From: Escherichia coli | Lineage (GTDB): Bacteria > Pseudomonadota > Gammaproteobacteria > Enterobacterales > Enterobacteriaceae | Assembly (NCBI RefSeq): GCF_016026235.1 | Contig: NZ_CP065613.1 | DNA length: 64,000 nt | Direction: 5' to 3' (one strand) | In this document: positions 26,106-31,829 of the stretch, one piece after another | How the letters are laid out: each line of letters begins with the position of its first letter | How positions within the stretch are numbered: the first letter of the stretch is position 1 | Translations under genes and position numbers: made by a program | The notes under the pieces: model-generated | Seen by the model: the letters and a program-made list of their open reading frames with translations, nothing else | Told to the model about the DNA's origin: nothing | The model's database searches: none

Positions 26106-27272
26106 ATGAACTTACATGAATATCAGGCAAAACAACTTTTTGCCCGCTATGGCTTACCAGCACCGGTGGGTTATGCCTGTACTACTCCGCGCGAAGCAGA
26201 AGAAGCCGCTTCAAAAATCGGTGCCGGTCCGTGGGTAGTGAAATGTCAGGTTCACGCTGGTGGCCGCGGTAAAGCGGGCGGTGTGAAAGTTGTAAACAGT
26301 AAAGAAGACATCCGTGCTTTTGCAGAAAACTGGCTGGGCAAGCGTCTGGTAACGTATCAAACAGATGCCAATGGCCAACCGGTTAACCAGATTCTGGTTG
26401 AAGCGGCGACCGATATCGCTAAAGAGCTGTATCTCGGTGCCGTTGTAGACCGTAGTTCCCGTCGTGTGGTCTTTATGGCCTCCACCGAAGGCGGCGTGGA
26501 AATCGAAAAAGTGGCGGAAGAAACTCCGCACCTGATCCACAAAGTTGCGCTTGATCCGCTGACTGGCCCGATGCCGTATCAGGGACGCGAGCTGGCGTTC
26601 AAACTGGGTCTGGAAGGTAAACTGGTTCAGCAGTTCACCAAAATCTTCATGGGCCTGGCGACCATTTTCCTGGAGCGCGACCTGGCGTTGATCGAAATCA
26701 ACCCGCTGGTCATCACCAAACAGGGCGATCTGATTTGCCTCGACGGCAAACTGGGCGCTGATGGCAACGCACTGTTCCGCCAGCCTGATCTGCGCGAAAT
26801 GCGTGACCAGTCGCAGGAAGATCCACGTGAAGCACAGGCTGCACAGTGGGAACTGAACTACGTTGCGCTGGACGGTAACATCGGTTGTATGGTTAACGGC
26901 GCAGGTCTGGCGATGGGTACGATGGACATCGTTAAACTGCACGGCGGCGAACCAGCTAACTTCCTTGACGTTGGCGGCGGCGCAACCAAAGAACGTGTAA
27001 CCGAAGCGTTCAAAATCATCCTCTCTGACGACAAAGTGAAAGCCGTTCTGGTTAACATCTTCGGCGGTATCGTTCGTTGCGACCTGATCGCTGACGGAAT
27101 CATCGGCGCGGTAGCGGAAGTGGGTGTTAACGTACCGGTCGTGGTACGTCTGGAAGGTAACAACGCCGAACTCGGCGCGAAGAAACTGGCTGACAGCGGC
27201 CTGAATATTATTGCAGCAAAAGGTCTGACGGATGCAGCTCAGCAGGTTGTTGCCGCAGTGGAGGGGAAATAA
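26106..27272 (+). CDS. sucC: Succinyl-CoA ligase (ADP-forming) beta subunit
   Basis: 388-aa [66 protein letters not shown]... Confidence 0.97.
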
Positions 27273-28141
27273 TGTCCATTTTAATTGATAAAAACACCAA
27301 GGTTATCTGCCAGGGCTTTACCGGTAGCCAGGGGACTTTCCACTCAGAACAGGCTATTGCATACGGCACTAAAATGGTTGGCGGCGTAACCCCAGGTAAA
27401 GGCGGCACCACCCACCTCGGCCTGCCGGTGTTCAACACCGTGCGTGAAGCTGTTGCTGCTACTGGCGCTACCGCTTCTGTTATCTACGTACCAGCACCGT
27501 TCTGCAAAGACTCCATTCTGGAAGCCATCGATGCAGGCATCAAACTGATTATCACCATCACTGAAGGCATCCCGACGCTGGATATGCTGACCGTGAAAGT
27601 GAAGCTGGATGAAGCAGGCGTTCGTATGATCGGCCCGAACTGCCCAGGCGTTATCACTCCGGGTGAATGCAAAATCGGTATCCAGCCTGGTCACATTCAC
27701 AAACCGGGTAAAGTGGGTATCGTTTCCCGTTCCGGTACACTGACCTATGAAGCGGTTAAACAGACCACGGATTACGGTTTCGGTCAGTCGACCTGTGTCG
27801 GTATCGGCGGTGACCCGATCCCGGGCTCTAACTTTATCGACATTCTCGAAATGTTCGAAAAAGATCCGCAGACCGAAGCGATCGTGATGATCGGTGAGAT
27901 CGGCGGTAGCGCTGAAGAAGAAGCTGCTGCGTACATCAAAGAGCACGTTACCAAGCCAGTTGTGGGTTACATCGCTGGTGTGACTGCGCCGAAAGGCAAA
28001 CGTATGGGCCACGCGGGTGCCATCATTGCCGGTGGGAAAGGGACTGCGGATGAGAAATTCGCTGCTCTGGAAGCTGCAGGCGTGAAAACCGTTCGCAGCC
28101 TGGCGGATATCGGTGAAGCACTGAAAACTGTTCTGAAATAA
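27272..28141 (+). CDS. sucD: Succinyl-CoA ligase (ADP-forming) alpha subunit
   Basis: 289-aa [48 protein letters not shown]...; start overlaps sucC stop. Confidence 0.97.
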
Positions 28142-28214
28142 ATATCTGTAATAAGAAATAGCCCTCGCCGCTTCCCTCTACAGGAATGGCGAAGGGCTGT
28201 CGGTTTCGACATGG
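28142..28214 (+). ncRNA. sdhX: 5' portion of the sucD 3'-UTR sRNA region (SdhX/RybD), cut off from its terminator by IS1
   Basis: Begins right after the sucD stop and contains the hairpin gccctcgccgcttccctctacaggaatggcgaagggc; in uninterrupted loci this region runs on to the terminator now found at 28994-29018. Assignment rests on my memory of SdhX position, not on a covariance model. Confidence 0.4.
28206..28214. repeat. Left copy of the 9-bp IS1 target-site duplication (tcgacatgg)
   Basis: Identical 9-mer recurs at 28983-28991, immediately flanking both IS1 ends. Confidence 0.85.
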
Positions 28215-28269
28215 GGTAATGCTGCCAACTTACTGATTTAGTGTATGATGGTGATTTTAAGGTGCTTGC

Positions 28270-28545
28270 GTGGCTTCCATTTCCATCAGATGTCCTTCCT
28301 GCTCCGCTACTGAAGGCGTGGTGCGTAACGGCAAAAGCACTGCCGGACATCAGCGCTATCTCTGCTCTCATTGCCGTAAAACATGGCAACTACAGTTCAC
28401 TTACACCGCCTCTCAGCCCGGTACGCACCAGAAAATCATTGATATGGCCATGAATGGCGTCGGATGTCGCGCCAGTGCACGCATTATGGGCGTTGGCCTC
28501 AACACGGTTTTACGTCACTTAAAAAACTCAGGCCGCAGTCGGTAA
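28270..28545 (+). CDS. insA: IS1 InsA (transposition repressor; N-terminal part of the InsAB' transposase)
   Basis: 91-aa [43 protein letters not shown]... (zinc-finger and HTH). Confidence 0.93.
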
Positions 28546-28967
28546 CCTCGCGCATACAACCGGGCAGTGATGTGATTGTCTGCGCTGAAATGGACGAACA
28601 GTGGGGCTACGTCGGTGCTAAATCACGTCAGCGCTGGCTGTTTTACGCGTATGACAGGATACGGAGGACGGTTGTGGCGCACGTCTTCGGTGAACGCACT
28701 CTGGCCACACTGGAGCGTCTTCTGAGCCTGCTGTCGGCCTTTGAGGTCGTGGTATGGATGACGGATGGCTGGCCGCTGTATGAATCACGCCTGAAGGGAA
28801 AGCTGCACGTTATCAGCAAGCGTTACACTCAGCGCATTGAGCGACATAATCTGAATCTGAGACAACATCTGGCAAGGCTGGGACGGAAGTCACTGTCGTT
28901 CTCAAAATCGGTGGAGCTGCATGACAAGGTCATCGGGCATTATCTGAACATAAAACACTATCAGTAA
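28464..28967 (+). CDS. insB: IS1 InsB reading frame (expressed as the InsAB' transposase by -1 frameshift)
   Basis: 167-aa ORF in the -1 frame relative to insA, overlapping it; slippery ttaaaaaactc motif near 28520-28530. Confidence 0.9.
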
Positions 28968-28982
28968 GTTGGAGTCATTACC

Positions 28983-28991
28983 TCGACATGG
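28983..28991. repeat. Right copy of the 9-bp IS1 target-site duplication (tcgacatgg)
   Basis: Identical to 28206-28214. Confidence 0.85.
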
Positions 28992-28993
28992 TT

Positions 28994-29018
28994 GGCCATC
29001 GTATGATGGCCTTTTTTG
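28994..29018. terminator. Native sucD/SdhX intrinsic terminator, now downstream of IS1; bidirectional with mngR
   Basis: Hairpin ggccatcgtatgatggcc followed by TTTTTT; lies 4 nt before the mngR stop on the opposite strand. Confidence 0.7.
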
Positions 29019-29021
29019 TGC

Positions 29022-29744
29022 TTATCGCGATGATTTTCGCTGCGCTATCAGGGTAAATTTATAGTCATCGGTATTAAAAGCGTTGCGGCTATATTCAAAC
29101 ACCCGACCATCAACTAAATATCCACGCGATACTTTTTCAAGAATCGGCTTTGTCTGGCTGATATTAAGCAGACGGCTCATCTCTTCGGTTGGCATCAGAG
29201 GAATGATTTCCTGTTCGCTACGATCGATAACCATCTTCTTCACTTCTTCAATAAAGTGATATTTCGAATTTTCCATGACCTGCCAGGTGAGATCCGGGAA
29301 CAACGCAAGCGGCATCCAGGTTTCTTCCAGCGCCATTGGCTTTTGCTTGCGATAGCGCACGCGCTTCACATGCCACACACGATCCTGCGCGGTGATTTGT
29401 AGCTGTTGCTGAAGAAAATCGTCAGCCGGAATCACTTCAAATATCAGGACTTCACTGTGTGTATCGACGTGACGGTCCGACAGTTTTTCATCAAAACTGG
29501 TTAACTGAAAAATATCGTAATTGACCCGCTCTTCTTTGACGTAAGTCCCGCTGCCCTGAATGCTTTCGAGGATCTGTTGCTCGACTAACTGGCGCAAAGC
29601 CTGACGCACCGTAACCCGGCTGACGCCAAACTCTGTTTGTAATGCCGATTCGGTAGGTAACGCATCGCCAGGTTTAAGCTCGCCACGCGCAATTTGTTCA
29701 CGAATGCGATCGGCAATCTGCCGGTATAAGGGCTTGTGTCCCAT
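29022..29744 (-). CDS. mngR: GntR/HutC-family transcriptional repressor of the mannosyl-D-glycerate operon
   Basis: 240-aa ORF MGHKPLYRQIADRIREQIARGELKPGDALPTESALQTEFGVSRVTVRQALRQL (winged HTH) plus UTRA effector domain. Confidence 0.92.
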   Translation of the reverse strand: MGHKPLYRQIADRIREQIARGELKPGDALPTESALQTEFGVSRVTVRQALRQLVEQQILESIQGSGTYVKEERVNYDIFQLTSFDEKLSDRHVDTHSEVLIFEVIPADDFLQQQLQITAQDRVWHVKRVRYRKQKPMALEETWMPLALFPDLTWQVMENSKYHFIEEVKKMVIDRSEQEIIPLMPTEEMSRLLNISQTKPILEKVSRGYLVDGRVFEYSRNAFNTDDYKFTLIAQRKSSR

Positions 29745-29852
29745 TTTTAGTATCTCATTAATACGAATTTAGCCATTATGCCCGATAAATTCATCCTGTA
29801 AATAATACAAATACAATACAAATAATTTCAATCAAGTGAAATTGATCACATA

Positions 29853-31829
29853 ATGGTATTGTTTTATCGGGCACACTGGCGCGACTATAAAAACGATCAA
29901 GTGAGGATCATGATGAATCTGACGACTCTGACCCACCGCGATGCGTTGTGTCTGAATGCGCGCTTTACCAGCCGTGAAGAGGCCATCCACGCGTTGACTC
30001 AACGTCTTGCTGCTCTGGGGAAAATTTCCAGTACTGAGCAATTTCTGGAAGAAGTGTATCGCCGTGAAAGCCTTGGCCCGACCGCCTTAGGTGAAGGGTT
30101 GGCTGTGCCGCATGGCAAAACTGCTGCGGTAAAAGAAGCGGCGTTTGCGGTCGCCACACTCAGCGAGCCGCTTCAGTGGGAAGGCGTGGATGGCCCGGAA
30201 GCGGTTGATTTAGTGGTGTTGCTGGCGATTCCCCCCAATGAAGCGGGTACTACGCACATGCAACTGCTGACAGCGCTGACCACGCGCCTGGCTGATGATG
30301 AGATCAGGGCGCGTATACAGTCGGCGACGACGCCTGATGAATTGCTCTCGGCGCTGGATGACAAGGGAGGCTCGCAACCTTCTGCCTCTTTTTCCAACGC
30401 GCCAACTATCGTTTGCGTAACGGCCTGTCCGGCGGGTATTGCTCACACCTATATGGCTGCGGAATATCTGGAAAAAGCCGGACGCAAACTCGGCGTAAAT
30501 GTTTACGTTGAAAAACAAGGTGCTAACGGCATTGAAGGGCGTTTAACGGCGGATCAACTCAATAGTGCAACCGCCTGTATTTTTGCGGCTGAAGTCGCCA
30601 TCAAGGAGAGTGAGCGTTTTAATGGCATTCCCGCGCTTTCAGTGCCTGTTGCCGAGCCGATTCGCCATGCAGAAGCGTTGATCCAACAAGCGCTTACCCT
30701 CAAGCGTAGCGATGAGACGCGTACCGTACAGCAAGATACGCAACCGGTGAAAAGTGTCAAAACGGAGCTGAAACAGGCACTGTTGAGCGGAATCTCTTTT
30801 GCCGTACCGTTGATTGTCGCGGGGGGCACGGTGCTGGCGGTTGCAGTATTACTGTCGCAAATCTTCGGGCTACAAGATTTGTTTAATGAAGAAAACTCCT
30901 GGCTGTGGATGTACCGCAAACTGGGCGGCGGGATGCTCGGGATTTTGATGGTGCCGGTGCTCGCGGCCTATACCGCCTATTCACTGGGTGATAAACCGGC
31001 GTTAGCGCCAGGCTTTGCGGCTGGACTTGCCGCCAACATGATCGGTTCCGGGTTTCTCGGCGCGGTCGTTGGCGGATTGATAGCCGGTTACTTGATGCGC
31101 TGGGTGAAAAATCACTTGCGTCTTAGCAGTAAATTCAATGGCTTCCTGACTTTTTATCTCTACCCGGTGCTCGGTACATTGGGAGCGGGCAGTCTGATGC
31201 TGTTTGTGGTGGGGGAACCTGTCGCCTGGATCAATAACTCGCTTACCGCCTGGCTGAACGGTCTGTCAGGAAGTAACGCGCTGTTGCTGGGTGCCATTCT
31301 CGGTTTTATGTGTTCCTTTGACCTTGGAGGGCCAGTGAATAAAGCCGCTTATGCATTCTGCCTGGGCGCAATGGCGAACGGCGTTTACGGCCCGTATGCC
31401 ATTTTCGCCTCCGTCAAAATGGTTTCGGCATTTACCGTAACCGCTTCCACGATGCTCGCACCGCGCCTGTTTAAAGAGTTTGAAATTGAGACCGGGAAAT
31501 CCACCTGGCTGTTAGGGCTGGCAGGTATTACCGAAGGGGCGATCCCGATGGCGATTGAAGATCCGCTGCGGGTTATTGGTTCGTTTGTGCTGGGCTCTAT
31601 GGTAACGGGCGCTATTGTCGGTGCGATGAATATCGGCCTTTCGACACCCGGTGCCGGCATTTTCTCGCTCTTTTTACTTCATGATAATGGCGCGGGCGGT
31701 GTTATGGCGGCAATTGGCTGGTTTGGCGCGGCATTGGTGGGGGCTGCAATCTCGACTGCAATTCTCCTGATGTGGCGGCGTCACGCGGTTAAGCATGGCA
31801 ACTATCTGACTGATGGCGTAATGCCATAA
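29853..31829 (+). CDS. mngA: PTS 2-O-alpha-mannosyl-D-glycerate-specific EIIABC component
   Basis: 658-aa ORF with N-terminal EIIA-like domain, EIIB Cys motif ([16 protein letters not shown]) and a large membrane EIIC domain. Confidence 0.9.

Follow-up and report, generated by a model that had tools for sequence, protein, structure and literature searches.

The closest described system is the FarR/MngR operator of Escherichia coli K-12 (Quail, Dempsey & Guest 1994; Sampaio et al. 2004). As reported by later papers that cite the original work, FarR, which is the same protein as MngR, binds direct repeats of TGTATTAWTT (Quail 1994, as cited in PMC4494728), and its primary site spans 21 bp and holds a pair of imperfect 10-bp direct repeats (bioRxiv 10.1101/2025.08.21.671446, citing Quail 1994). 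Both the control region studied here and its direct-repeat operator have been described before (Quail 1994; Sampaio 2004): the locus, the repeats and the divergent arrangement of a repressor gene and a PTS operon are the same, and the direct repeats are no different. A long-range inverted repeat, present in our sequence, is not part of the operator as these secondary sources describe it. Two other noncanonical GntR regulators, NagQ (TGGTATT) and NanR (TGGTATAW), use a box with a GTAT(T/A) core in tandem and not the usual palindrome, and the conserved mngR–mngA boxes likewise have a GTATT core, here with 11-bp phasing; the regulators and regulons are different, however, and mngR–mngA has a fourth box, in inverted orientation, that flanks a CRP-like site. 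Canonical HutC operators (NyGTMTAKACNy; for example, the DasR/NagR dre sites) are likewise served by a regulator with a GntR-type HTH and a UTRA domain. Unlike those palindromes, the inverted repeat at mngR–mngA is not dimer-sized, as 73 bp separate its arms.

The present study indicates that the region is probably the known divergent mngR–mngA promoter/operator, in which MngR binds the direct-repeat operator and the inverted repeat has no separate function. In the window, by which we mean the whole 64-kb stretch of DNA analyzed, the gene order is sucD, IS1, mngR (minus strand), mngA (plus strand), and mngB (Table 1), with the mngR ATG at 29744 on the minus strand. MngR matches NCBIfam PRK09764 with 525 bits and contains the Pfam domains GntR (HTH) and UTRA, and it is therefore a HutC-subfamily regulator, in agreement with the GntR/HutC-family regulator that an earlier sequence-only reading had proposed on the basis of the DNA letters and their open reading frames. 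MngA contains EIIA_2 and IIB domains. That reading had also named the locus correctly, as shown by the annotation and by the match of the spacer to that of K-12 MG1655, from which it is separated by a single base, at 29772. With a difference of only 1 nt, the K-12 literature is directly applicable to the window.

The extent of the control region depends on the start codon of mngA. The K-12 MG1655 record begins the gene at the ATG at 29853 (658 aa), whereas PGAP-annotated genomes begin it at 29913 (638 aa). The 108-bp spacer of the sequence-only reading follows the K-12 start. Alignment to mngA begins exactly at the Met at 29913 in 38/38 orthologues from other genera, and that codon is preceded by a GAGGA Shine-Dalgarno sequence. 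The in-frame ATG lying 20 codons farther upstream occurs in the K-12-type allele only: neither the ST131-type E. coli allele nor the other genera compared have an equivalent, and in several of those genera there is a stop within 4–8 codons in the region upstream of the Met. Taken together, the PGAP annotation, the 38 orthologues, the GAGGA element and the nonconserved upstream ATG argue that the real start is 29913, with the 658-aa start receiving no comparative support, and that the functional spacer is thus 168 bp long and holds both arms of the inverted repeat. The right arm falls within the 60 bp annotated as coding in K-12 (29853–29912), as do the predicted −10, the Shine-Dalgarno sequence and a putative MngR-like box in inverted orientation. 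This correction is a minor addition, a matter of annotation hygiene.

Two samples were used for comparison. Across genera, we aligned 38 mngR–mngA spacers from Citrobacter, Enterobacter, Kluyvera, Leclercia, Lelliottia, Buttiauxella, Pseudocitrobacter, Atlantibacter, Serratia, and Edwardsiella; the scan of genome contigs that supplied them gave no Escherichia locus, and variation within the species was taken from a collection of 5,426 complete E. coli genomes. The mngR–mngA locus is present in 3,867 of the 5,426 genomes. Allele frequencies there are those of identity bands combined with eight aligned spacers, the window counted in, and not of a per-site census: about 3,276 genomes carry a K-12-type spacer (at least 95% identity to the window), and about 550, including ST131, carry a second allele that is ∼88% identical to the window. 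In the 38 spacers from other genera, the invariant or nearly invariant blocks are AATACAAAT(N2)AATACAAA, GAAAnTGATCAC, GTAT, ATTAT(G), and the A..T of the mngA −10.

Table 1. Features of the mngR–mngA locus, in window coordinates
Feature	Position	Strand	Basis
sucD	27272–28141	+	
mngR (farR), GntR/HutC-family repressor, 240 aa	29022–29744	−	PRK09764, Pfam, RefSeq annotation
mngR–mngA divergent control region, 168 bp, 31.5% G+C	29745–29912	.	Between both ATGs
mngR 15-codon uORF (MNLSGIMAKFVLMRY), ends 2 nt before the mngR ATG	29747–29794	−	PMC4965119 and sequence
Putative MngR-like box CGTATTAATG, 2 mismatches to TGTATTAWTT	29756–29765	−	Repeat family D3, alignment, motif scan
Second conserved mngR promoter-like element: −35 TTTACA (29802–29797), 16-bp spacer, −10 CATAAT (29780–29775)	29775–29802	−	
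Inverted repeat, left arm TGCCCGATAAA (extended arm 29772–29789)	29779–29789	.	
Primary MngR/FarR operator, TGTATTGTAT-T-TGTATTATTT	29800–29820	−	Motif scan, repeat finder, literature
RegulonDB mngR promoter: −35 TTGAAA (29831–29826), 18-bp spacer, −10 TATTAT (29807–29802), TSS 29795	29802–29831	−	
CRP-like site AGTGA-AATTGA-TCACA (AGTGAAATTGATCACA)	29835–29850	.	Motif scan and conservation
Putative inverted MngR-like box GGTATTGTTT	29855–29864	+	Repeat pair I2, alignment, motif scan
Inverted repeat, right arm TTTATCGGGCA (extended arm 29863–29880)	29863–29873	.	
Predicted mngA −10 hexamer CACACT	29872–29877	+	Conservation
mngA Shine-Dalgarno GAGGA, 5 nt before ATG 29913	29903–29907	+	Kept as GTGAGGATC in orthologues
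mngA (PTS EIIABC for 2-O-alpha-mannosyl-D-glycerate), 638-aa form	29913–31829	+	PGAP start, orthologues, Pfam
mngB	From 31847 onward		

The ACAAATA-type direct repeats that had been noticed in the spacer are real: the repeat finder gives two copies of AATACAAATA, at 29804–29813 and 29815–29824, with a period of 11 bp, and a third, overlapping AATAC at 29810 is found in the K-12-type allele only. On the minus strand, TGTATTATTT at 29800–29809 matches TGTATTAWTT with 0 mismatches and TGTATTGTAT at 29811–29820 with 2, so that two such repeats lie within about 21 bp, and they are conserved in the orthologous spacers. The AATACAAAT-NN-AATACAAA tract is invariant or nearly so across the 38 genomes, from Citrobacter to Edwardsiella, and AATACAAAT...ATACAAA is invariant in all of them. 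The repeats are located in the spacer adjoining mngR, between the −35 and −10 of the promoter that starts at 29795. Judged by the secondary citations given above, the direct-repeat tract coincides with the experimentally determined primary FarR/MngR site, and the operator layout that the sequence-only reading had seen in the spacer thus holds for its direct repeats; for the inverted repeat, which it had taken as part of an operator pair, it is unsupported, as discussed below.

The tandem boxes also vary within the species. In a comparison of the window with two of the aligned spacers (L002 and L046), the ST131-type allele is closer to the inter-genus consensus at these boxes (AATACAAATTTAATACAAAT). 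In strain MB06021 (L045), near window position ∼29803, the direct-repeat tract contains a 6-bp AATACA expansion, which suggests replication slippage in the operator.

On the mngR side, a σ70 promoter scan recovers the RegulonDB promoter, the hexamers of which are also given by Shimada et al. (PMC3946193). The 5′ end of the mngR mRNA, GATGAATTTATCGGGCATAAT, is given in the RegulonDB table in the supplement of PMC4965119 and maps to 29795 (minus strand), the start of this promoter; according to the same source, the mRNA carries a translated 15-codon 5′-uORF. Only the K-12-type allele has the TTGAAA −35 of the promoter, which is missing from the ST131-type allele; regulation of mngR–mngA may therefore differ between E. 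coli phylogroups. The second promoter-like element is the conserved one. Its spacer is fixed in length and variable in sequence among the orthologues, and its CATAAT hexamer is kept essentially unchanged in 34/34 ungapped orthologues. Just downstream of this conserved promoter lies a putative MngR-like box, 44 bp from the primary site, whose TAATAC core is kept in most genera.

On the mngA side, the predicted −10 reads CAnAAT in other genera, where it is mostly preceded by TGn, and the A at its position 2 (29873) and the T at its position 6 (29877) are invariant in 38/38 genomes. If this hexamer is taken as the −10, the mngA TSS would lie near 29884, and the CRP-like site, which is centered at 29842.5, would be 41.5 bp upstream of it; the −41.5 spacing thus fits a TSS that is itself derived from the conserved −10. 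A second putative MngR-like box, in inverted orientation, sits between the CRP-like site and the predicted −10. It reads TGTATTrTTT in most genera, with G115, T116 and T118 invariant and A117 nearly so. The conservation of the two outlying boxes suggests that MngR may bind there as well. Another mngA promoter that has been proposed, TTAATA-19-GATAAA (PMC3946193), was considered and rejected: its −10, GATAAA, lies inside the left arm of the inverted repeat and is not conserved.

The CRP-like site is the single match in the 64-kb window to TGTGA-N6-TCACA with at most one mismatch. Its GAAAnTGATCAC block and its right half-site are invariant in the 38 genomes, and on these grounds it may serve CRP at mngA. 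Class II CRP-dependent catabolic promoters, which have the site centered at −41.5, provide the obvious comparison: here too there is a TGTGA-N6-TCACA site, with 1 mismatch and a conserved right half-site, a weak −10 that often has a TGn extension, and a PTS/catabolic operon downstream. One difference is that the central GAAAnTGATC is conserved beyond the level usual for CRP sites. Because its center is so conserved, the site may bind another factor, such as Cra (reading TGAAAnTGATCA). Neither the text of the genomic SELEX study of Shimada 2011 nor a full-text literature search provided evidence for CRP at mngA or an experimentally mapped mngA TSS.

Two further features of this part of the spacer were noted. 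The TGATCAC core of the CRP-like site (29842–29849) holds a GATC (Dam) site that is conserved in 38/38 genomes. In addition, there is an imperfect 18-nt direct repeat at 29822–29839 and 29887–29904 (ATAATTTCAATCAAGTGA and ATAAAAACGATCAAGTGA; 78% identical), which duplicates ATCAAGTGA, once in the left half of the CRP-like site and once just before the mngA Shine-Dalgarno sequence; its upstream copy is not conserved in other genera.

These elements can be combined in a simple model. MngR, a HutC-type GntR repressor, binds the tandem 10-bp repeats at 29800–29820, the step that has the backing of the literature. This site overlaps the RegulonDB mngR promoter at its −10 and spacer, and it abuts the −35 of the second mngR promoter-like element. 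The outlying boxes at 29756–29765 and 29855–29864 would probably extend repression to mngA, the inverted one being positioned within the predicted mngA core promoter, between the CRP-like site and the −10. MngR on the tandem site and the outlying boxes would thereby occlude both promoters, and mngA would additionally need an activator at the CRP-like site. Published experiments cover two parts of this model only, the binding of MngR to the tandem site and the MngR-dependent repression of mngAB; the remainder we infer from conservation. As the operator was mapped in 1994, the four-box and CRP-like architecture is a minor addition to a known system and has little significance beyond annotation hygiene, but the conserved arrangement in 38 genomes of tandem boxes, two outlying boxes, the CRP-like site and two −10 elements could guide a dissection of mngA regulation.

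The inverted repeat itself exists and is slightly longer than had been described, with 11 bp perfect, 16/18 over the extended arms, and 73 nt between the arms; the bases that the sequence-only reading had placed at its flanks (a...c) are unpaired, and its right arm falls outside the 29745–29852 interval to which the repeat had been assigned. When the 168-bp spacer was shuffled 2000 times with dinucleotides preserved, a perfect inverted repeat of at least 11 bp arose in 0.75% of cases; such a repeat is unusual in a single spacer, but not once the many spacers of a 64-kb window have been scanned. The position of the arms is instructive. The left arm fills the spacer and the first two bases of the conserved CATAAT −10, and the right arm comprises the 9 bp upstream of the predicted CACACT −10 together with the first two bases of that hexamer. 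Read outward, the arms are TTTATCGGG-CATAAT-GGC on the mngR side and TTTATCGGG-CACACT-GGC on the mngA side, so that each extended arm consists of 9 bp of promoter spacer, a −10 hexamer and 3 bp.

The sequence-only reading had proposed a comparison with orthologous spacers and had named nonconservation of the inverted repeat as a result that would speak against it; in that comparison the inverted repeat is not conserved. In the 36 genomes that are not E. coli, the two sides have nothing in common beyond −10-type positions. Arm-to-arm identity in these genomes is 7.5/18 within the same genome vs. 7.4/18 across genomes, and in the 9-bp spacer part of the arms it is 2.28/9 vs. 2.30/9, which is random. 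Concerted evolution of the two arms was rejected, there being no signal in this comparison of same-genome with cross-genome identity. Within E. coli, the ST131-type allele carries a C to T change at 29782 and a G to A change at 29869, which are not pairing partners, and the repeat falls to 9/11 without compensation; one further strain has C to A at 29782 alone. An origin of the arms in a repeated element of the MITE or REP type was also rejected: the window contains one other near-copy of the arm motif, against 1.06 matches expected in the whole window, and the arms occupy conserved positions of the promoters.

These observations bear directly on the possibility that the arms are auxiliary operator half-sites, for MngR or for an unknown E. 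coli factor, which would loop the intervening 84 bp and clamp both −10 regions. Such a loop would enclose the primary MngR site and the CRP-like site. The 11-bp perfect core, with its p of about 0.0075 in the shuffles, is what one would look for in such a pair, and so is the geometry, the arm centers being 84 bp, or about 8 helical turns, apart and both arms standing in the same register relative to their −10 hexamers. MngR is moreover an unusually strong repressor, with a fold-change that is almost equal at +1 and −103 (PMC11806353). Yet the arms showed no resemblance to TGTATTAWTT in the motif scan, their spacer part is random in the 36 other species, the two nonmatching substitutions occur in about 14% of mng-positive E. 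coli, and the count of near-copies is that expected by chance. We regard a looping pair of such half-sites as unlikely. The canonical HutC palindrome GTMTAKAC, allowing at most one mismatch, has 24 matches in the 64-kb window and 0 within 29745–29912. Because the arms are unlike the FarR box, are random outside E. coli, change without compensation in the ST131-type allele and lie on −10 regions in a spacer without a HutC palindrome, the inverted repeat as an operator is unsupported, and it appears to be a lineage-specific coincidence of the K-12-type allele over two core promoters.

The spacing of the arms and their common register remain the points that count against coincidence, and the register could reflect a shared factor in E. 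coli. It is somewhat less probable still, and in our view quite improbable, that in the K-12-type lineage the identical TTTATCGGGCA segments arose recently as paired sites, recognized by one factor or contacted by RNA polymerase, through which mngR and mngA expression would be coupled, for example by a loop of 84 bp that encloses the MngR and CRP sites. If true, this would add a lineage-specific layer to the known operator.

The inverted repeats of the spacer are nested (I1 outer; I2 and I6 inner), and they might be read as a regulatory RNA stem-loop or a DNA cruciform. The folding energies of the window sequence fit such a structure: the RNA MFE is −30.5 kcal/mol (z = −4.15), with 0/200 shuffles as stable, the DNA MFE is −19.8 kcal/mol (z = −4.45; 200 shuffles), and a separate RNA fold of the window region with 100 shuffles gave z = −4.8. 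The strong fold is limited, however, to the K-12-type allele, z being −0.2 in the ST131-type allele and −0.58 in the median of 36 orthologues, and compensatory changes in the arms were seen neither among the E. coli alleles nor among the orthologues. No known transcript contains both arms, as the mngR mRNA starts at 29795 and transcription of mngA can begin only downstream of the region that holds the mngR promoter. No Rfam family matched at E ≤ 1 over 28000–30200, and two oppositely oriented MngR boxes account for the inner stem I2. For a cruciform, a loop of 73 nt makes extrusion unfavorable. A hairpin or cruciform as a conserved feature was accordingly rejected after the folding of the orthologues and the second E. 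coli allele, and a functional structure of either kind is very unlikely in our estimate.

A further explanation places the arms in RNA: a shared leader motif, UUUAUCGGGCA, on both divergent mRNAs would be read posttranscriptionally by a protein or sRNA and so coregulate the repressor and the transporter. The left arm does correspond to +7 to +17 of the RegulonDB mngR mRNA, within the 15-codon uORF, the motif would lie at ∼+3 of the mngA mRNA if the K-12-specific CATAAT at 29849–29854 were the mngA −10, and CsrA has been reported to repress mngA (PMC5694010). That CATAAT is CATAAA or CGTAAA elsewhere, however, while the −10 conserved across genera would place the mngA TSS beyond the right arm, near 29884; in addition, the motif has no GGA core for CsrA and is not conserved. 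The leader-motif explanation thus has little to recommend it, and we give it as small a chance as the stem-loop. Coincidence over two core promoters, in a region whose operator is the direct-repeat tract, stays our preferred reading of the inverted repeat.

The flanking sequence also holds an insertion. A complete 768-bp IS1 (28215–28982), with its insA/insB ORFs on the plus strand, lies in the 103-bp tail-to-tail sucD–mngR spacer between the two copies of a 9-bp target duplication, TCGACATGG (28206–28214 and 28983–28991). The K-12 annotation places the sRNA gene sdhX here, in the 101 nt that immediately follow sucD. In the window, IS1 sits after about nt 73 of this gene and splits the first hairpin from the terminator hairpin GGCCATC...GATGGCC-T6, so that SdhX is probably disrupted in the window strain. 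The IS1 junction was found in one piece in 0 of the 5,426 complete E. coli genomes searched.

Finally, mngRAB is accessory within E. coli, the locus being missing from 1,559 of the 5,426 complete genomes. In strain E89 (L003, 1614–1656), a natural deletion of about 160 bp spans the 5′ end of mngR and nearly all of the control region, so that a gap of 37 bp is left in front of mngA, and in strain 1217KP (hit H60) the match is to the final 43 bp of the spacer only.
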